Below are positions 30,712-44,014 of a DNA stretch of 60,978 bases, one piece after another. The translations under genes and the position numbers were made by a program. The first letter of the stretch is position 1, and every line of letters begins with the position of its first letter. The notes beneath the pieces were generated by a model. The model made no database searches, was not told the DNA's origin, and saw only the letters and a program-made list of their open reading frames with translations. The DNA is from Marinoscillum sp. GTDB taxonomy: Bacteria; Bacteroidota; Bacteroidia; Cytophagales; MED-G16. Location: NCBI GenBank assembly GCA_042095375.1, contig JBELBJ010000002.1:1-60978 (forward strand), read 5' to 3'.

Positions 30712-31479
30712 ATGTTGAGTAAAATTATTGGAGTTTTGTTAAAAAAATTTCCTAGATCTTTTTTACAAAGAATTAGCAAACCTATTTTTACAATTATCAA
30801 ATTATTTTATTTAGGAGATAAAGTTCTTTGTTCTATTTGTAAGAAAAAATTTATTAAGTTTTTCCCTTATGGAAGAAAAATTAGACAGAATGCTTTATGT
30901 CCTAACTGTTTATCTCTTGAAAGACATAGACTTTTATACCTTTTCCTAAAAAAAAAAACTGATTTTTTTAAAAAAAATATTAAACTATTACATATTGCTC
31001 CTGAACAATGTTTAATTAAAGTTTTTAGCAATTTAAAAAACATAGAGTATGTAACAGGAGATTTATTTTCACCATTAGCAAAAATAAAAATGGATATCCA
31101 TAACATTCCATTTGAAAATAATTCATTTGATGTCATATTATGTAATCATGTCCTTGAACATGTTGAAGACGACAAAAAAGCAATTAAAGAAATAAATAGA
31201 GTAATGAAAAAAGATGGTTTTGCTATTCTCCAAGTTCCTTTTTATTATCCAATTCCAGAAAAAACTATTGAAGATAAATCAATAGTATCTAAAAAAGAAA
31301 GAGAGAAAATTTACGGTCAATCAGATCATTTAAGAAAATATGGTGAAGATTATGATAAAAGAATATTATCTCAAGGACTTAAATTAAAAAAATCAAATTT
31401 TATTGATTCATTCTCCAAGAAAGAAAAAAAATATTATGGATTACAAGAAAAAGAAGTAATATATTATTGCTACAAATAA
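30712..31479 (+). CDS. Class I SAM-dependent methyltransferase with N-terminal zinc ribbon
   Basis: CSIC...CPNCLSLERHR, LLHIAPE, MDIHNIPF, DVILCNHVLEHV and GQSDHLRKYG. Confidence 0.85.
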   Translation: MLSKIIGVLLKKFPRSFLQRISKPIFTIIKLFYLGDKVLCSICKKKFIKFFPYGRKIRQNALCPNCLSLERHRLLYLFLKKKTDFFKKNIKLLHIAPEQCLIKVFSNLKNIEYVTGDLFSPLAKIKMDIHNIPFENNSFDVILCNHVLEHVEDDKKAIKEINRVMKKDGFAILQVPFYYPIPEKTIEDKSIVSKKEREKIYGQSDHLRKYGEDYDKRILSQGLKLKKSNFIDSFSKKEKKYYGLQEKEVIYYCYK

Positions 31480-32435
31480 TTTTTAATCCAAGCCCTCAAA
31501 TAGCCACTTCCGTAAGCAAAAAATTGAATAAATGTAGTTACTACTGATAAAAAGCCAACTACCAGGTTTTTATTTAAAATACTTGATTCTAAAAATATTA
31601 ACATAAAATAAATACCATAGATAAACTGAAGCAATAAAAATAAATTAAAATCAATTTTAAATAATAAAAGTAAATATGTGAGAATAAAAAATATAATAAA
31701 TAAAGAAGGTAATAAATGAAAAATTCTAAATGTTCCTTTATGCTTTTGGTTTAATATAACTCTAGCAGTACCAGAAGAAAAAATTTGATTATAAAATGCA
31801 AATAAATTATTTCTTCTTTTATGATAAACATATGCATTTTTTATAAAACTTGATTTTGCTCTTGAAGATAATAATCTATATGTCAAATCTAGATCTTCAC
31901 CAAATCTCATTGAGGAAAATCCTTCTATCTCCAAAAATTTGTTTTTTTTCACACCCATATTAAATGATCTTGGCAAAAATTTATCAACTGAATATTTAGA
32001 TCCTCTAATGCCACCTGTTGTTAACATGGATGTCATTGAATGATTTATTGACTTTTGTAAAAAGCTAAAATTTTTTTTTGATTTATCTGGACCACCAAAA
32101 AAATGAATATCTTCATTAGATTTTAAAAACTTATTAATCTCATAAAAATAATTTTCAGGAATAGTACAATCGGAATCAAAAAATATTATCCATTCAGCAT
32201 TTGCAAATTTTACACCATAATTTCTTGCAAGACCAGGACCTTTATTTGATATTTCATGATATTGCAAATTAATTTTACTTTTAAAGCTATCAATAATTTT
32301 TTTTGATGAAATAGATGATCCATCTTCAATAACTATAATTTCTAGATCTCTATATTTTTGATCTACTATACTTTGAATTAAATCATTAATTTCATCAGGC
32401 CTGTTAAATACAGGTATAATTACTGAAAATTTCAT
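31470..32435 (-). CDS. Glycosyltransferase family 2
   Basis: SVIIPVFNR, IEDGS, FFDSDC, RFGEDLDL, VYHKRR and a C-terminal TM segment. Confidence 0.9.
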   Translation of the reverse strand: MKFSVIIPVFNRPDEINDLIQSIVDQKYRDLEIIVIEDGSSISSKKIIDSFKSKINLQYHEISNKGPGLARNYGVKFANAEWIIFFDSDCTIPENYFYEINKFLKSNEDIHFFGGPDKSKKNFSFLQKSINHSMTSMLTTGGIRGSKYSVDKFLPRSFNMGVKKNKFLEIEGFSSMRFGEDLDLTYRLLSSRAKSSFIKNAYVYHKRRNNLFAFYNQIFSSGTARVILNQKHKGTFRIFHLLPSLFIIFFILTYLLLLFKIDFNLFLLLQFIYGIYFMLIFLESSILNKNLVVGFLSVVTTFIQFFAYGSGYLRAWIKNYL

Positions 32436-33403
32436 TAATCAAAACCTTTCTTATCACTAACAATCTGATCATCATTTTTAGAACTAACTTTTACAACTAT
32501 TTCTGCTAAAAAGCCTGCTAAAAATAGTTGAACACCAATAATTATTGATACAAGAGCTATAAAAAAAAGCGGCTGATCTGTTACAGGTCTAATTTCATCA
32601 ATTGGAATCCCTTCATATATTTTTGAAACTTTATCATAAATTATTATAAAAGAACCCATTAATCCAAATAGAAAAGAAAAAACCCCCATTGTTCCAAAAA
32701 AATGCATGGGTTTTTTCTTAAACTTATAAACGAAACTAACAGATATCAAATCTAAAAATCCGTTGATAAATCTTTCTATCCCAAATTTTGTCTTACCGTA
32801 TTTTCTTGGATTATGATTCACTATTTTTTCTCCTATTTTATTAAAACCATTCCATTTTGCTATTAAAGGAATATATCTATGCATTTCACCATATATAGAA
32901 ATATTTTTTATAACAGAATTTTTATATGCTTTAATACCGCAATTAAAATCATTTAATTTAATTCCTGAAAAAAGTCTAGTAACAAAATTAAAAAATTTTG
33001 AAGGTAAAGTTTTAGTAATAGGATCAAATCTCATTTTTTTCCAACCAGAAATTAAATCATAGTCTTGATCAATAATCATTTTGTAAAGAGGCATAATCTC
33101 TTTTGGATCATCCTGTAAATCAGCGTCCATAGTAATAACTACTTTGCCAGATGAATGTTTAAATCCAATATCTAATGCTGCTGATTTTCCATTATTTTTA
33201 TTAAATCGAATACCTTTTACAGATGAATTTTTTAAAGCTTCATTTTTAATAAATCTCCATGAGTTATCAGAACTACCATCATCAATGATAATAATTTCAT
33301 ATAAAATGGATGAAGAAATAGTATCATTAATTGAAGTAACTAACTCTGGGATAGACTCTTCTTCATTATATGCAGGAATTATAATTGATAAATCCATATG
33401 CAA
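32435..33403 (-). CDS. Glycosyltransferase family 2 (ArnC/DPM-synthase-like, membrane-anchored)
   Basis: IIPAYNEEES, IDDGSSD, TMDADLQDDP, DFNCGIKAY, GEMHRYIP and two C-terminal TM helices. Confidence 0.9.
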   Translation of the reverse strand: MHMDLSIIIPAYNEEESIPELVTSINDTISSSILYEIIIIDDGSSDNSWRFIKNEALKNSSVKGIRFNKNNGKSAALDIGFKHSSGKVVITMDADLQDDPKEIMPLYKMIIDQDYDLISGWKKMRFDPITKTLPSKFFNFVTRLFSGIKLNDFNCGIKAYKNSVIKNISIYGEMHRYIPLIAKWNGFNKIGEKIVNHNPRKYGKTKFGIERFINGFLDLISVSFVYKFKKKPMHFFGTMGVFSFLFGLMGSFIIIYDKVSKIYEGIPIDEIRPVTDQPLFFIALVSIIIGVQLFLAGFLAEIVVKVSSKNDDQIVSDKKGFD

Positions 33404-33410
33404 ATTTAGT

Positions 33411-34688
33411 TTAATAATTAAATTTTGAATTTTTAGAGTTTATAATACCAAAGATTTTACCTTTCAAGGACCAATTTAACCAAGGGGAATTGAAAGATTT
33501 GGAAATATTATTATCTAAAGAATAATCCCATGATCCATTAATATCAAAAATAGTCAAAGAAGCATTTGATCCAACTTTTATAGATTTATCTTCAAGATTA
33601 AGAATTTTCCTTGGGTTCGAAGTAAATTTTGTAATCAAAGACTCTAAAGAAATTTTTGAAGATAAAATTAATATATTACTAAAAAATGTTTGAAGAGAAA
33701 TCATTCCATTTTCAGCATTATTAAATTCAACTGATTTATTTTCAATGTTTTGAGGTTGATGATAAGAAGAAATCACATCTATGGTGCCATCCTCTAATCC
33801 TTTTATTAAAGCATCAATATCATCTTTTGTTCTTAATGGAGGATCCAATTTATAATTGGTATCAAAATTTATGATATGGCTATCATCTAATATTAAATTA
33901 TAAATAGAAACATCACAAGTAACATTTAATCCATCCTGTTTTGCTTTCCTTATTATATCGACAGAAGATTTAGTAGATATTCCTGAAAAATGTAATTTTC
34001 CTCCAGAGTATCTCAAAATTGATAAATCTCTATTTAACATTATTTCCTCAGCGATATTTGGGATACCTTTTAAACCAGATATGGTACTATTATGTCCTTC
34101 ATTTACAATACCTAACCTTGATAAACTAAAGTCCTTAGGTTTATTTATTAATAGGCCATCAAATTGTTTAATATAAAGTAAAGCTTTATACATCATATCT
34201 GAATTTTGTAATTCTTTTTCGCCATCAGTAAATGCAACTGCTCCAGCTTTATTTAAATCTAAAATTTCATTTAATTCAATTCCATCAGTATTTTTAGTAA
34301 TAGCAGCAGTTGGATGAATAGTTGAAAGGTCATTTTCAGTTTTATTTTTTACATAATAAATATCATTTTTAGATTGTAAAATAGGATTTGTATTAGGCAT
34401 TAATAAAATATCAGTAAAACCTGAAAAAGAAGCTAATTTAGAGCCTGAAGTTAAATCTTCTTTATGTTCAAATCCAGGATCACAAAAATTTGATCTAAAA
34501 TCAAACCAACCAGGAGATACCATCATTCCATCGCAATCGATAACCTTAGTAGTTGAAGTTTTTACATTTATTCTAGATAAACTAATCTTATCTATGACAC
34601 CACTATTATCAATTAAAATATTTACTTTTTTAGAATTATACTCAGAGTTTAAATCAACAACTATAACAGATTTTAAAATTAATGACAT
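33411..34688 (-). CDS. Dihydroorotase-family protein, probably the catalytically inactive PyrC'-type
   Basis: DHOase fold motifs (PGW.D...DPG.EHKED, LMPNT, KLDPPLR) are present, but the metal-binding HxH is replaced by RSN and the catalytic DHAP by YHQP. Confidence 0.8.
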   Translation of the reverse strand: MSLILKSVIVVDLNSEYNSKKVNILIDNSGVIDKISLSRINVKTSTTKVIDCDGMMVSPGWFDFRSNFCDPGFEHKEDLTSGSKLASFSGFTDILLMPNTNPILQSKNDIYYVKNKTENDLSTIHPTAAITKNTDGIELNEILDLNKAGAVAFTDGEKELQNSDMMYKALLYIKQFDGLLINKPKDFSLSRLGIVNEGHNSTISGLKGIPNIAEEIMLNRDLSILRYSGGKLHFSGISTKSSVDIIRKAKQDGLNVTCDVSIYNLILDDSHIINFDTNYKLDPPLRTKDDIDALIKGLEDGTIDVISSYHQPQNIENKSVEFNNAENGMISLQTFFSNILILSSKISLESLITKFTSNPRKILNLEDKSIKVGSNASLTIFDINGSWDYSLDNNISKSFNSPWLNWSLKGKIFGIINSKNSKFNY

Positions 34689-35547: not shown

Positions 35548-38500
35548 TTAAAATTTTAAAGAAACCATCCATTCATCATAAGTCAAATTACTATTATCTA
35601 AATCATATGCCTTAGCCCAACCAACGGACAAAGTGGCTGCTAAGTGAGAAAACATTACGAGTCTTGTATCCAATTGAAATCCTATATTATAAAAGTTCTG
35701 ACTAACATCATTACCAGAAACGTTAATATCTTTAGCTGTAAGAAACCCTGCAAATATTGTTGGGTGAGACCATGAAGCAAAAAAGTTAAAAAATCCTACT
35801 TTTCTATATCTTAATGGAGGCAGTAATAATTCAGCAGTAGTTTTGAAGAAAGTTTTTGCTATAATATTTCTACCTGAATCAAAGCTTACTCCAGGAAAAG
35901 AATAAGTCCCTCTGTATCTTTTTGGAGATAAATAGTCTATATAATTATTACCAAAAGCAGCAAAACCAAATCTAGAAAATGGATTTACTTTTTTACTAAA
36001 TGAATTTCCCGAGGAAGTTCTAAACCAAAGAGAGGTATGGTTAACTGGTAGTTGAATCCCAAAATCAAAATTTCCAGTAAAAGTTGGATAAAAATTTCCT
36101 TCTGTAATTGAAGAAGAAGCATTTAATGACATATTCACTCCTTTTTCTCCATCAACTGCGCCTACCGATTTTCTAATATTTCTATAAGTTAATGAAGAAA
36201 AAATGTCATAAAATAAATTTGTGTCATAATCCTTATCAAAATTATCAATTTGCTGGAAATCTGGTGATTGATCTAAACCATAGAAGCCTCTAAAACCAGT
36301 TGTTAAATCAACGTTTTTCGGATTATCAAATACCAAAGATTTTTTATTATTAAAACCAAACAACAATCCTTTTCTTGATCTTTTAGTAGGACCAAATAAA
36401 TCATAAAAATTGTCTTTATTATAATGAGCAAAGAAATTATAACTTCCAGATAGAAAGCCACCAATTTTACTTGTTGAAAAGTTTAAAGAACCATGAAATT
36501 GTTCGTCATCATCAATAGTTGCATTACCATCACTTAATTGATTCTTCCATTGTTTTGGTGTGAAAGAAAAAGACAAATCAAATGATCTAAAGCTAAATGG
36601 ATCTTCAAAATTGAATTTATAACCTATTCCGATATTATCTTTATAACCTACTACTATGGGATAAGCATAATTTAATTTCATTTCCTTTCTGGGAAGATAA
36701 ATACCGTCTTTTTCAATAGTTATTTCATCTAAATTGACTGTCTGAGGAGTAGGCAATTTATTCCTCCATTCTTTAAGTTCAGGATGTTTTTTGATAGTTT
36801 CATCTCCTAAATATTTAATAGTTTCAATTTCTAGAACAGTATTATTAGATATGTAAACAGGTAGAAAACCATCACTAGTATATCTAAAAGCAAAAATTCT
36901 ATCTTTATCTATTTGAATAGGTCGAAAATATCCAGTAATTGCATTTGACATTAAATCAATATCATCCGCTTCATAAGTATTAGCATCTACTCTCCATATA
37001 TTACTTACACCTGAATAATAAGAAGAACCAAAAAGATAATTACCATCATCAGTAAATCTAAAACTTTGAGGTGAAGAAACATCAAAATTAAAAACTTCCT
37101 TATAAACTATATCTTCTTTACCTCCTTTGTCAAAGGATTCTATATCATATATATGAAGGTATTGATTGCCAAAGTAATCAGCAACTGCTGCACTTAAACT
37201 TTTACCATCAGGTGATACATCTATATCAAAAATATCATGACCAAATGGCAATGTGTATTTTTGATTCCAATCTCTATAATAATCATTTGGAGACTCAGAA
37301 TTATATTTTGGTATTTTAACGATTGTATTGTAACCATTTAGATGTCTAATACCCCATAAAGATTCGTCTTTTTTGTTAAATGCAAGATCACCAATATGTT
37401 CATTTTTTTGTAACAATTTTGTTTCACCAGTTTTTAAATTGTAACTATTTAAATCTCTATTTGCATTGTTATCAGTTGAATATATAAGAAGATCATTTTT
37501 TTCATCGTAGGTAAGTGAAGTTACATTAAATAAAGCGGGTCCCTTTACATCTTTAAGTCTATCAATCTCACCTGTTTCTAAATCAATGCTAGCAATATGA
37601 GGAACTTTGCCAGGATAATTAACACCTACATAAATTTTATTTCTTTTTTTATCATGAAATGCATGAGAAACACCACCTAATACTTTTTCAGTAATAGGTT
37701 CATATTGAGTAATAGGAAACTTTTTAAGTCCATTAATATTTTCATCCTGAAAAGAACGTTCAAAATCAATCCAAGTATCCCAAGCTTTACTAATTGATAA
37801 ACCAAATACGTTTTTAAAATTGGAAGCAAATCCACGTTTGCTTTGATCTTTTCTTTTTATCCATTCAATTAAATTAGTAGGTCCATATTGGTGAGCTACA
37901 TAACTCATAAATCTTGTTCCATAGTAATATGAATTAGCTTTAGACATAAAATCTGCAGAAGTACCTTCTGATTCCAATCCTTGTGCTGAATAAATCCTAG
38001 AATTTTCAAGTGTTCTAGTTCTAAAAAACATTTCATCATAACTACCTAAAGCATTTCCCTTTCCACCATCCATCCAAGTTTCAATAAATACAGCAATACC
38101 TTCATGGAACCATCTAGGAGAATAATATCTTGGATTAGTGAGATAGCTATAAAACATAGAAACAGGATGATCGTTTGTATTTCTAACTTTTCCAGCAAAA
38201 AGTTTTCTATAAAAAACATCTGTTTTTGAATAATTATCGAGCGCAACTATATGTACAAGTTCATGATTCATGATAGCAAATACTCTTTCCCCAGCAATAC
38301 TTGACTCAAAAGAATAATTCATAGGTGAAATACAAGTTGAAACCATGTTATTAGGAATTGAGGTTGCTCCTCCATTTCCATAATCTCCAAAATCTTGAAT
38401 CATAACATGAATTTTTTCTCTTGGTTCGTAATCAAATAACTTTTTATGAAAATTAAGGGCGCTATGAGCACATCTTGCTGCATGGGGTAAAACGAAGGCT

Positions 38501-38619
38501 TCACCAATTCCCATAGAAACAATATCAAAATTTTCTATTTCTAATTTATCCATTTGAGAAAAAGAGGTATTAAAATAAAAAAAGAAAATAAATGATAATG
38601 GAATAGCTATTTTTTTCAT
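35548..38619 (-). CDS. Large outer-membrane protein: signal peptide, HExxH zinc-metallopeptidase-like (MA-type) domain, TolB/WD40-like propeller, probable Omp85-like C-terminal beta-barrel
   Basis: SFS|Q signal; HELVH (aa 119-123, nt 38265-38251) with PRWFHEGIA and YYYGTRF; propeller repeats (DVSPDGK, FRFTDDG); amphipathic strands ending WMVSLKF (terminal Phe). Confidence 0.7.
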   Translation of the reverse strand: MKKIAIPLSFIFFFYFNTSFSQMDKLEIENFDIVSMGIGEAFVLPHAARCAHSALNFHKKLFDYEPREKIHVMIQDFGDYGNGGATSIPNNMVSTCISPMNYSFESSIAGERVFAIMNHELVHIVALDNYSKTDVFYRKLFAGKVRNTNDHPVSMFYSYLTNPRYYSPRWFHEGIAVFIETWMDGGKGNALGSYDEMFFRTRTLENSRIYSAQGLESEGTSADFMSKANSYYYGTRFMSYVAHQYGPTNLIEWIKRKDQSKRGFASNFKNVFGLSISKAWDTWIDFERSFQDENINGLKKFPITQYEPITEKVLGGVSHAFHDKKRNKIYVGVNYPGKVPHIASIDLETGEIDRLKDVKGPALFNVTSLTYDEKNDLLIYSTDNNANRDLNSYNLKTGETKLLQKNEHIGDLAFNKKDESLWGIRHLNGYNTIVKIPKYNSESPNDYYRDWNQKYTLPFGHDIFDIDVSPDGKSLSAAVADYFGNQYLHIYDIESFDKGGKEDIVYKEVFNFDVSSPQSFRFTDDGNYLFGSSYYSGVSNIWRVDANTYEADDIDLMSNAITGYFRPIQIDKDRIFAFRYTSDGFLPVYISNNTVLEIETIKYLGDETIKKHPELKEWRNKLPTPQTVNLDEITIEKDGIYLPRKEMKLNYAYPIVVGYKDNIGIGYKFNFEDPFSFRSFDLSFSFTPKQWKNQLSDGNATIDDDEQFHGSLNFSTSKIGGFLSGSYNFFAHYNKDNFYDLFGPTKRSRKGLLFGFNNKKSLVFDNPKNVDLTTGFRGFYGLDQSPDFQQIDNFDKDYDTNLFYDIFSSLTYRNIRKSVGAVDGEKGVNMSLNASSSITEGNFYPTFTGNFDFGIQLPVNHTSLWFRTSSGNSFSKKVNPFSRFGFAAFGNNYIDYLSPKRYRGTYSFPGVSFDSGRNIIAKTFFKTTAELLLPPLRYRKVGFFNFFASWSHPTIFAGFLTAKDINVSGNDVSQNFYNIGFQLDTRLVMFSHLAATLSVGWAKAYDLDNSNLTYDEWMVSLKF

Positions 38620-38702: not shown

Positions 38703-39755
38703 CTAATTTACAGCACCTTTAGCAAATTTTTGAAATTCAGCGCCTTTCATAAACTTCTGAAAATCAGCACCTTTCATGAACTTCTGAAAAGATGAACCTT
38801 TTGCAAATTTAGAATAAGCACCACTTTTCATGAACTTTTGAAAATTAGCGCCTTTCATAAACTTCATAAAGTCTCCATTTTTAGCAAACTTTGCAAAGTC
38901 AGCACCTTTAGCAAACTTCTGAAGATCAGCACCTTTAGCAAACTTCTGAAGATCGGCACCTTTCATGAACTTTTGTAAAGTAGCATCTTTCATAAACTTC
39001 TGAAAATCAGCACCTTTCATGAACTTTTGAAAGTCAGCACCTTTCATGAACTTTTGAAAAGCAGCATCTTTAGCAAATTTTTGAAAATCACCACCGCTTT
39101 TCATAAACTTTTGAAATTCAGCACCTTTCATGAACTTTTGAAAATCAGCACCTTTCATGAACTTTTGAAATTCACCTAATTTCATAAGAAGCTTTCCAGG
39201 AGTACCTCTACTATCTGAAGTTTTATTGTCATTATCACCTAATTCTATTCCACCACTTGATGAAACTGATCTTCCAGCTCCACCATCTTGATTAAAATTA
39301 GATAAACTAGAAGCACCTTGTCTCAAATCATCAGCACCAATACCTCCACCTCCAGAGCCTCCTCCAGATTTACCATCTCTTTGTGTATATGGTTCTTGTT
39401 CATTTGAAGTCATCAAATCATCATTTCCCATAACATCAGCAACGATACTAAACACAGGATCATCAAGAACCTTTAAGAACTCATCGCTCTCAACAAGTTT
39501 AGCAAATTCAGGAGATGCAATCATTCTCATGAAGTCTTCATTTTGTAAAACTTCTTGGATCTCCTCACCTTCCAATTCAACAGCAATAGTATTTTTCTCA
39601 GAATACTTCTGAGCTTTCTTAATACTAGTTATACCAGAACCAGATGCCATTGACGGATCAATAGTACCAGTTTGAATAAGAAGATAACCTACAGCAGCAA
39701 TTGCTACTACAGTACAAACAATCAAAATATTTAATTTATCATGTACTCTTTTCAT
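38703..39755 (-). CDS. Uncharacterised membrane-anchored protein with tandem 9-residue amphipathic repeats
   Basis: N-terminal hydrophobic helix (about aa 9-27), acidic 9-mer block (aa 66-102), G/S/D/N-rich linker, then 17 x FQKFMKGAD-type units (aa 196-349). Confidence 0.85.
   Translation of the reverse strand: MKRVHDKLNILIVCTVVAIAAVGYLLIQTGTIDPSMASGSGITSIKKAQKYSEKNTIAVELEGEEIQEVLQNEDFMRMIASPEFAKLVESDEFLKVLDDPVFSIVADVMGNDDLMTSNEQEPYTQRDGKSGGGSGGGGIGADDLRQGASSLSNFNQDGGAGRSVSSSGGIELGDNDNKTSDSRGTPGKLLMKLGEFQKFMKGADFQKFMKGAEFQKFMKSGGDFQKFAKDAAFQKFMKGADFQKFMKGADFQKFMKDATLQKFMKGADLQKFAKGADLQKFAKGADFAKFAKNGDFMKFMKGANFQKFMKSGAYSKFAKGSSFQKFMKGADFQKFMKGAEFQKFAKGAVN
38706..39170 (-). repeat. In-frame 27-bp tandem repeat (17 units, one of 30 bp) encoding (F/L)-Q-K-F-(M/A)-K-G-A-(D/E)
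   Basis: Units counted directly from the translation. Synonymous positions vary between units (TTT/TTC, CAA/CAG, AAA/AAG, GGT/GGC). Confidence 0.95.
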
Positions 39756-39798
39756 AATATTTAAAATTTATAATTAATTAAATTGTTAAAAATTTAAA

Positions 39799-39856
39799 AA
39801 ATTATTTTATAATGGAGTTGTATGAAATAAGACATAGTTCAATTATAAAATAATTT
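39799..39856 (-). promoter_or_regulatory. 15-bp perfect inverted repeat in the predicted 5' UTR of the repeat-protein gene
   Basis: AAATTATTTTATAAT (39799-39813) pairs with ATTATAAAATAATTT (39842-39856). An inner TATG/CATA pair could extend the hairpin. Confidence 0.55.
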
Positions 39857-39868
39857 AAAAAACGTAGG

Positions 39869-39876
39869 CAAAGATA
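39869..39876 (-). promoter_or_regulatory. -7 element (TATCTTTG) for the repeat-protein gene
   Basis: TAnnTTTG match 30 nt downstream of the purA stop and just upstream of the hairpin. Confidence 0.6.
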
Positions 39877-43915: not shown

Positions 43916-43997
43916 GCGGATGTGGCGAAATTGGTAGACGCACTAGACTTAGGATCTAGCGCCGAAAGGCATGGGGGTTCGAGTCCCTCCATCCGCA
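43916..43997 (+). tRNA. tRNA-Leu (anticodon TAG), CCA not encoded
   Basis: Acceptor stem GCGGATG/CATCCGC, D-loop TGGTAGAC, anticodon arm CTAGA-CTTAGGA-TCTAG, long variable arm, and T-loop GGTTCGAGTCC. Confidence 0.97.
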
Positions 43998-44014
43998 CTA
44001 TAAAATTTTAATAT

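Follow-up and report, generated by a model that had tools for sequence, protein, structure and literature searches.

A conserved array of 17 cationic nonapeptides in a membrane-anchored protein encoded next to two proteases in marine Bacteroidota

We analysed a 60,978-nucleotide stretch of DNA from Marinoscillum sp. (positions 1–60,978 of the forward strand of contig JBELBJ010000002.1; hereafter the window, to which position numbers refer), which carries on its minus strand a gene for a 350-residue protein, P0001, ending in a tandem array of 17 cationic nine-residue repeats (Table 1). The array is old and under constraint, and its gene gives rise to a separate, abundant, monocistronic transcript. 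It is followed by the genes of two proteases in a conserved order, and several relatives of its product carry an anti-sigma-like domain and are encoded next to an extracytoplasmic function (ECF) sigma factor. In the reading that we favour, and to which we give an even chance, the array would be the periplasmic, short-helix ectodomain of a sigma-less anchor of anti-sigma type, acting as bait or substrate of the two neighbouring proteases.

An initial annotation, made from the sequence alone, had described the array as 17 tandem nonapeptides at 38706–39170, with the consensus F-Q-K-F-M-K-G-A-D, lysines at positions 3 and 6, a net charge of about +1 per unit, no Pro, Trp or Cys, and synonymous codons differing between units. 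Each of these points was borne out; the membrane anchor, the link to two proteases, the STI1/DP-like relatives and the abundant monocistronic transcript, all described below, go beyond that annotation. Unit splitting reproduced the coordinates exactly and assigned the array to residues 196–350 of the open reading frame (ORF), and Tandem Repeats Finder returned a period of 27 with 16.4 copies, 75% nucleotide matches and a score of 394. Sixteen of the 17 units comprise nine residues and one has ten (FQKFMKSGGD), and the final unit, FQKFAKGAVN, reaches the C-terminus. Each of the 17 units has K3, F4 and K6; F, L or Y occupies position 1 and M or A position 5, and positions 7–9, which form the inter-helix turn in the models described below, are the least conserved. 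With 35 K against 14 D + E, the array has a net charge of +21, or approximately +1.25 per unit, and is devoid of H, I and R in addition to C, P and W. Identical unit peptides use varied codons (TTC/TTT, CAA/CAG, GAT/GAC and GGT/GGC).

Maintenance of the array at the protein level, which had also been proposed, was upheld by comparison with orthologues from three genera within one family of small (1–1.8 Mb) marine genomes, labelled at NCBI as "uncultured Marinoscillum sp." or as Cytophagales single-amplified genomes (SAGs) and metagenome-assembled genomes (MAGs). Orthologues of P0001 were found in 16 of the 25 family genomes, its own counted, and more widely in the phylum. Within the genus, dN/dS over the array (Nei–Gojobori) was approximately 0.04 against locus L013 and 0.06 against locus L015; between genera, synonymous sites were saturated, with a pN of just 0.11–0.13. 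All 17 units, the ten-residue one included, align without a gap across the three genera, and unit-specific variants (KDAA, KDAT-L and AY-x-KFAKG) are retained, so that the units are positional orthologues and their count of 17 is stable. Recent slippage or a hypervariable contingency locus is excluded by the collinear units in three genera and the saturated dS. Coding on the opposite strand was likewise rejected, as its ORFs of 46 and 50 residues are by-products of the repeat and its longer frames contain up to 14 stops.

Unitigs of four marine metagenome studies, all independent, cover the array from end to end with 0–4 mismatches and no joints, RNA contigs likewise span it without joints, and independent single-cell and MAG assemblies of the three genera agree on 17 collinear units. 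Together with 350 open codons opposite these interrupted frames, the low dN/dS and transcription of the gene, these observations answer the check for an assembly artefact that the initial annotation had called for, and they leave next to no probability to a non-coding tandem repeat or artefact mimicking an ORF, even though Logan unitigs break within the array and short forms of it occur in some metagenome assemblies. Unitig depth also climbs at 38970–39060, where k-mers repeat, so that the copy number in this segment is not readable from unitigs alone. The repeat number, compared across strains as had been advised, was thus 17 in the three genera, alongside the short forms. The latter are near-identical metagenome proteins (P0002–P0006) with 3–7 units only; in addition, one RNA contig (run X30, window 38825–39126) omits exactly 300 nt, equivalent to 11 units, in frame. 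These may be true copy-number variants or products of assembly collapse or template switching. Some alleles of two genera (L014:10001–11179 from SAG AG-343-C10, P0008, P0011 and P0018) have an extra block in mid-array, which consists of duplicated units plus a hydrophobic segment of about 20 residues, EFNFAITLGVLVAAPVIRSAFF; this segment might cross the membrane a second time or serve the array as an intramolecular "client". The L014 hydrophobic-insert allele had zero coverage in four read runs.

The structure of the array was assessed by hydrophobic-moment analysis and AlphaFold2 (AF2) prediction. The hydrophobic residues at positions 1, 4, 5 and 8 had been assigned to one helical face, and this holds inside a single unit, where the moment at 100° in nine-residue windows is 0.44, but not across the array, for which it falls to 0.02 at 100° (0.43 at 120° and 0.30 at 80°), as nine residues make 2.5 α-helical turns and the hydrophobic face flips by 180° with each unit. 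A continuous amphipathic α-helix resembling those of late embryogenesis abundant (LEA) proteins or apolipoproteins was therefore rejected, and the analogy with these proteins that had been drawn is unsupported. The AlphaFold check that had been recommended was performed in two runs. For the whole protein, with a 15-sequence alignment, the mean predicted local distance difference test score (pLDDT) was 41.5 and the predicted template modelling score (pTM) 0.33, with one helix per unit. For the array alone, with a gapless 11-sequence alignment, pLDDT was 63.3, with two blocks at 76–82, and pTM was 0.57; this model contains 17 helices, mostly of 7–9 residues, with one of 4 and the last of 11. The helices span approximately A-D-F-Q-K-F-M, i.e. 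two turns, and break at K-G. The helix-turn solenoid put forward earlier is the structural reading best supported by the models, both of which place one helix of 7–8 residues in each unit, and the array is predicted to be a flexible helix-turn repeat with one short capped helix per unit. The 17 units would form a flexible rod or solenoid in which each two-turn amphipathic helix is closed by the K-G break, with Phe/Met side chains packed inward or lining a groove and the outside coated by two Lys per unit. Sequence searches of the PDB with the whole protein and with the array profile gave nothing meaningful.

Downstream of the repeat gene and on its strand lie the genes of a large peptidase and of a PrsW-family protease (Table 1). 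The former carries a signal peptide and, judging from its sequence, is inferred to be an outer-membrane barrel; its more than 2365 homologues are all named hypothetical, and a few have precomputed Peptidase_MA_2 or lactonase-propeller Pfam matches. A same-strand peptidase of about 1000 residues follows the repeat gene in 15 of 15 related loci and in three distant genomes, and PrsW follows the peptidase in 14 of these loci, the contig of the remaining one ending inside the peptidase gene; PrsW is also found after the peptidase in L028–L030, L033 and L035. This order is kept in Flavobacteriaceae and Cyclobacteriaceae despite a quite different repeat consensus, and the two proteases are far better conserved than the repeat protein (61–69% vs 31–35% identity). 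An even sample of 150 complete Bacteroidota genomes was then screened with a hidden Markov model of the conserved head (residues 37–72; E-value of 6e-43 on P0001). Besides the genome of the window, four genomes were matched, with all four matches directly upstream of the large peptidase, which itself occurs in 16 genomes of the sample.

For these comparisons, the head-plus-repeat anchor family was defined operationally in this analysis, with repeat lengths of 8–16 residues allowed. The window gene combines a transmembrane (TM) helix and head with a long repeat array and with co-oriented peptidase and PrsW genes downstream. Peptidase-bearing genomes that the head model had not matched were also inspected (L033–L040). 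Three of these loci (L037, L038 and L039) had no repeat gene upstream of the peptidase, although in L037 and L038 the contig stops within some hundreds of bases of it. At L036:869–1585 and L040:1233–1658, proteins with a signal peptide and 16-residue repeats, SNSQLEEMGTRLGFTR and SNSQLEELGGRWGWTK, precede a distant peptidase homologue of about 1219 residues (30% identity); the pairing of a repeat protein with the peptidase thus persists even where the repeat sequence itself has changed.

Among 1.84 billion representatives searched with a profile, 202 proteins reached E ≤ 0.001. They have in common the TM helix, a "GTIGAAxRY...DV.L.D..Q.LLQ.D" type of head and extended 9-mer arrays (NADFNNLVK, SDPKFTELM and ANEDFQxLV, for example), and in several of them the N-terminal domain is anti-sigma-like. 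In L035, the gene order is ECF sigma factor, anti-sigma + TM + head + 8-mer repeat protein, peptidase and PrsW, and in L034 it is ECF sigma factor, anti-sigma + TM + head + Ala/Glu-rich repeat protein and peptidase. L033 comprises an ECF sigma factor, an anti-sigma-like protein, a protein of NADFLAALA 9-mers, the peptidase and PrsW, and in L031 an ECF sigma gene overlaps that of an anti-sigma + head + 9-mer protein. The gene of P0062 overlaps one for an ECF sigma factor. The anti-sigma matches of P0050, P0062 and P0065 are weak and sub-threshold. The genome of the window has one M50 site-2 protease.

The positional orthologues connect these repeats with the STI1/DP motif. P0293 of the Flavobacteriaceae genome MAR_2010_188 (L028:4122–4937), which is matched by P0001 in BLASTP with an E-value of 3e-44, the head included at about 50% identity, has about 21 copies of SPDFKKxMS; P0294 and P0295 of Cyclobacteriaceae have about 30 copies of NPAFAELAK, and those of MAGs labelled "Cryomorphaceae" (L024–L026) about 35 of SPEFGKMMA, with 49 Met within the 35 units of L024. 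Unit counts across the relatives range from 17 to 36. P0293 scored 44.1 bits against Pfam PF17830 (STI1-HOP_DP; gathering threshold 29.1), 37.4 bits against PF23195 (UBQLN1; gathering threshold 27) and 63.7 bits against NCBIfam NF047558 (TPR_END_plus; cut-off 32). The anti-sigma-fused P0062 reached 39.6 bits against PF17830, and P0050, P0042 and P0295 were likewise above the NF047558 cut-off. The scores of P0293 and P0062 are sums of many short motif matches and thus indicate kinship at the level of the motif, not of a full DP domain. Pfam and NCBIfam scans of P0001 returned sub-threshold noise only (Ribos_L4_asso_C, ScpA and TPR_END_plus), and a six-frame search of the whole genome for PF17830 gave no match. 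The units of the window array carry a net charge of +1.25 each, those of the two sister genera one of about +1, and those of Cyclobacteriaceae, "Cryomorphaceae" and the anti-sigma-fused relatives one of approximately zero, so that the cationic character is specific to this lineage, as are the linker and the change of cap from S-P-D to G-A-D. At the sequence level, these comparisons show the repeats to be a local cationic derivative of the STI1/DP-like [S/N]-P-[D/E]-F-x-K-[L/M] nonapeptides of the positional orthologues. In a PDB sequence search, the SPDFKKxMS array of P0293 also scored 69 bits against the nonapeptide repeats of the human coagulation factor V B-domain, most likely through convergent low-complexity similarity of two nine-residue S-P-D-L/F repeats. 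Literature searches on bacterial or periplasmic STI1 domains and on PrsW in Bacteroidota retrieved no paper on the repeat family or the cassette.

Ahead of the array, P0001 consists of a basic cytoplasmic tail (residues 1–7, net charge +2), a TM anchor, the head, an acidic block and a disordered linker (Table 1). The N-terminal stretch of residues 1–14 (39714–39755) is well conserved across genera, MSKHTNKVHGKLNF, with MKRVHDKLN in the window, which may indicate a contact in the cytoplasm despite the absence of an anti-sigma domain. Within the head, S40, I42, A48, K50 and Q67 are invariant among 11 diverse relatives. Residues 58–115 have a net charge of −13, and AF2 predicts four seven-residue helices in this acidic region (64–70, 73–79, 82–88 and 91–97); in relatives without a linker, the counterpart of the acidic block in the alignment is the first units of the array. 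Both the length and the sequence of the linker vary from genus to genus, and the Flavobacteriaceae, Cyclobacteriaceae and "Cryomorphaceae" orthologues lack it. The topology is predicted to be N-in/C-out, by homology with relatives that carry a cytoplasmic anti-sigma domain before the same anchor, and the array would therefore face the periplasm. A lipoprotein was rejected, as the sole Cys lies within the hydrophobic helix and is missing from the orthologues, and so was a counterpart of TolA domain II, which has an anchor followed by a Lys/Ala-rich helical region, given that no tol/pal genes are nearby and that the sequence lends it no support.

The gene is flanked by a promoter-like site and a terminator-like hairpin (Table 1). 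RNA contigs from at least three independent marine metatranscriptomes cover approximately 38724–39824 only, with an upstream limit at 39778–39824 and a downstream stop at about 38724–38754, and depth is 0 over the downstream gene. Word depth over the RNA contigs, a rough measure, is 16–34 over the repeat gene and at most 1.3 over all other protein-coding genes in the 17 kb covered (peptidase, PrsW, purA, relA, tig and clpP among them); the difference is nonetheless large and reproducible. A tRNA-Leu gene on the plus strand (43916–43998), between relA and tig, accounts for the only other RNA peak in these 17 kb.

Upstream of the repeat gene lie purA, fur and relA, and an operon with purA was rejected, as purA is upstream in this genus only. 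Within the genus, the PrsW gene is followed in conserved order by genes for an amidohydrolase (33411–34688) and two family-2 glycosyltransferases (32435–33403 and 31470–32435), all on the minus strand; they are unlinked beyond the genus, and an Amidohydro_3 protein is also encoded after PrsW in L028.

Table 1. Coordinates of the repeat gene, its parts, its flanking signals and the two downstream protease genes in the window.
Feature	Position	Strand	Basis
Promoter-like site, TTGCCT-18-TATAAT, upstream of the gene	39842..39871	minus	sequence
Whole gene P0001, 350-residue type-II membrane-anchored repeat protein	38703..39755	minus	ORF and translation
N-terminal TM anchor, residues 8–28, hydrophobic LNILIVCTVVAIAAVGYLLIQ	39672..39734	minus	sequence; AF2 helix 2–28
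Conserved head, residues 37–72, GSGI..KKAxKY..V.LEGEEIQ..LQN	39540..39647	minus	alignment of relatives
Acidic block, four 9-mers, residues 73–108, Phe at 75, 84, 93 and 102	39432..39539	minus	charge; AF2
Gly/Ser/Asn/Asp-rich linker, residues 109–190, predicted disordered	39186..39431	minus	pLDDT ~20; no secondary structure
Repeat array, 17 cationic 9-residue units, residues 196–350	38706..39170	minus	unit splitting; Tandem Repeats Finder
Terminator-like hairpin and T-run just past the stop codon	38644..38680	minus	sequence
Partner 1, 1023-residue secreted protein, HELVH...WFHEG, propeller-like repeats, C-terminal Phe	35548..38619	minus	translation
Partner 2, PrsW-family intramembrane metalloprotease, 258 residues	34767..35543	minus	PF13367, 115.8 bits

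In the favoured reading, P0001 would be the sigma-less form of a widespread inner-membrane anchor of anti-sigma type, composed of a head plus tandem repeats, and the array would be the segment of this anchor that the large peptidase and PrsW recognise and probably cut or trim. Recognition by the proteases is deduced from the conserved gene order and the relatives, with the cutting of the RsiW ectodomain by PrsW as the model; proteolytic processing of the array, and the signal that it would give, are inferences of the same kind. In relatives with an anti-sigma domain and an ECF sigma factor, cutting would release the latter. In the streamlined marine lineage, the sigma output is gone and the protein, which has become polycationic, would be made abundantly; this high expression and the polycationic surface suggest that it has taken on a further role, or a substitute one, as a binder of anionic envelope surfaces.

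Several findings weigh against this reading. P0001 has only seven residues before the TM helix and no zf-HC2 or anti-sigma match in Pfam and NCBIfam scans, no sigma factor gene adjoins the window cassette, and the sole clear ECF-type sigma factor of the genome (C48:6726–7334, i.e. L041:1727–2335; 202 residues) lies on another contig and is followed by rsmG. With neither an anti-sigma domain nor an adjacent sigma factor, the classical output of regulated proteolysis is missing, and a hidden sigma/anti-sigma partner elsewhere in the genome was rejected in view of this rsmG neighbour. P0001 itself gave no match to PF17830 at E ≤ 1 and 11.9 bits against NF047558, which is below the cut-off. The repeat sequences are wholly different between lineages, 8-mers, 16-mers and Ala/Glu-rich helices included, so that a specific fold may matter less than repetitiveness. 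The confidence of the AF2 models is moderate only, and a Foldseek search of the PDB with the array model found no solved analogue (best TM-score 0.25, E > 5). Finally, the gene's own terminator and an RNA level far above that of either protease argue against a simple 1:1 complex, and a transcript this abundant is no less in keeping with a structural protein than with a regulatory substrate.

This last point leads to an alternative that we consider unlikely, although its chance is a real one, in which P0001 is not a protease substrate but an abundant envelope tether or spacer, or a polycationic membrane-binding rod on a flexible linker. Its Lys-rich surface would bind anionic phospholipid, lipopolysaccharide or peptidoglycan, and the protein would brace or space the two membranes of the streamlined cell. 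The lipid-binding scaffold proposed in the initial annotation survives in this modified form, its LEA-like version having failed on the cancelling moment. The net charge of the array and its lineage-specific cationic character fit a tether, as do RNA far above that of all neighbours, the long disordered linker gained in this lineage only and the lost sigma output; the cancelling 100° moment, however, means that the array could not rest on a bilayer surface as a single amphipathic helix, the same gene partners are also found with neutral orthologous arrays, and strict adjacency to two proteases over large distances would need another explanation. That adjacency, a very high mRNA level and cationic, locally amphipathic units would all suit a polyprotein precursor cut between units into short cationic peptides (antimicrobials, signals or envelope modifiers), and a concatenated library of membrane-active peptides had indeed been suggested. 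We regard this as very improbable, given that unit variants, the 10-mer included, sit at fixed orthologous positions, as in a structured domain and not in interchangeable cargo, that orthologous arrays elsewhere are neutral or acidic, that the relatives are anti-sigma factors, and that the inter-helix positions 7–9, where a conserved processing site would be expected, are the most variable. The helical core, moreover, has only seven residues, and a seven-residue helix is very short for a membrane-active peptide.

A periplasmic holdase resembling STI1 would use the Phe/Met groove to keep hold of unfolded or hydrophobic stretches, for example in intermediates of outer-membrane proteins or lipoproteins, and pass them on to the neighbouring peptidase/propeller/barrel protein, which would degrade or insert them. 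STI1 and Sgt2-C helical hands bind hydrophobic helices (PMC8010706), orthologues exceed the Pfam STI1-HOP_DP and UBQLN1 thresholds, the arrays are rich in Phe and Met, as the Met count of L024 illustrates, and high expression suits a chaperone. On the other hand, the Pfam scores add up short motif matches with no single full-domain stretch, the window protein itself is unmatched, Foldseek recovered no five-helix hand, some cassette repeats, e.g. QKGEPITM and KDANASLT, have no hydrophobic face, and fusion to an anti-sigma domain would be unexpected for a chaperone, all of which makes a holdase improbable. A small but somewhat better chance is given to a more elaborate version of the protease-substrate reading, in which the array would be a consumable, length-coded trans-periplasmic "fuse", a rod of capped two-turn helices running from the inner membrane to the outer-membrane zinc peptidase, trimmed unit by unit on envelope perturbation and thereby licensing the near-membrane cut by PrsW. 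In marine lineages without the sigma factor, the present one among them, its output would be not transcription but the abundant protein itself, as a polycationic coat for anionic envelope surfaces; alternatively, the molecules would self-associate into an STI1-like network, with the acidic 9-mer block of one docking into the cationic array of another. If true, STI1-type helix-in-groove interactions would here be put to use by bacteria outside the cytoplasm.

Should the favoured reading of the array as a protease-recognised ectodomain be correct, the STI1/DP repeats, which have so far been studied as client-binding hands of eukaryotic co-chaperones, would turn out to have a large, unrecognised branch in bacteria, made up of long tandem arrays that are borne on membrane anchors and act outside the cytoplasm. 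The arrays would be the variable "sensor or substrate" part of a cassette of repeat anchor, zinc peptidase and PrsW, often with an ECF sigma factor. This cassette is widespread in Bacteroidota and, by the relatives found, also occurs beyond them, and it would be a candidate envelope-stress pathway in phyla in which sigma-E-like sensing is poorly understood. The window version is sigma-less and polycationic, its transcript dominates the neighbourhood in several metatranscriptomes from the ocean, and its host lineage is abundant, uncultured and streamlined, so that its function may be of consequence for the cell envelope in bacteria that are common in the ocean. In addition, the array offers a clean natural case of a nine-residue helix-turn repeat, as predicted, without a solved structural analogue.

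Among known systems, the nearest by motif is STI1/DP, and the nearest by mechanism are the regulated proteolysis of RsiW by PrsW and, for gene order, FecIRA. STI1/DP and Sgt2-C domains are flexible hands, rich in Met, that consist of five amphipathic helices and have helix-breaking prolines as well as a hydrophobic groove (PMC8010706). The window array resembles the STI1/HOP DP domain and its relatives (PF17830, PF23195 and the Sgt2/SGTA C-domain) in its short amphipathic helices, Asp/Pro-type caps and richness in Met, Phe and Leu, as well as in flexibility, which is known there and predicted here. It differs in having 17 tandem 9-mers in place of one five-helix hand, in a G-A-D cap for S-P-D that leaves it proline-free, in its strongly cationic character, and in belonging to a bacterial, membrane-anchored, extracytoplasmic protein without a preceding TPR domain. 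The NF047558 "TPR end-of-group domain" model matches the same nonapeptide motif in the orthologues, but it describes a 56-residue domain and not a long array, and the window protein has no TPR repeats. The 11-mer repeats of LEA proteins, apolipoproteins and α-synuclein are likewise short and tandem, with Lys and hydrophobic residues in a helical pattern; their period of 11 (3.67 residues per turn) keeps one amphipathic face, whereas the period of 9 in the window goes with separate capped helices in the predictions.

PrsW is the site-1 protease of RsiW. The RsiW/PrsW/RasP system of Bacillus subtilis resembles the window cassette in that RsiW is, as predicted for P0001, a single-pass N-in/C-out membrane protein, the gene for the window ectodomain lies beside one of the PrsW family, the relatives have an anti-sigma N-domain after an ECF sigma factor, and the genome has one M50 site-2 protease. 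It differs in that the window genome has neither the anti-sigma domain nor a neighbouring sigma factor, the ectodomain is a repeat array unrelated to that of RsiW, an extra outer-membrane-type peptidase of about 1000 residues is present, and the host is diderm. The likeness to FecI/FecR/FecA is one of gene order only, the relatives having a sigma factor, a membrane anti-sigma factor with a periplasmic tail and an outer-membrane-type barrel in succession, which by analogy suggests contact across the envelope; the partner here is, however, a zincin/propeller/barrel protein and not a TonB-dependent transducer, and there is no FecR-type domain. What is new with respect to all of these systems is a tandem, extracytoplasmic, membrane-anchored array of 9-mers, which in the present lineage is cationic and sigma-less.

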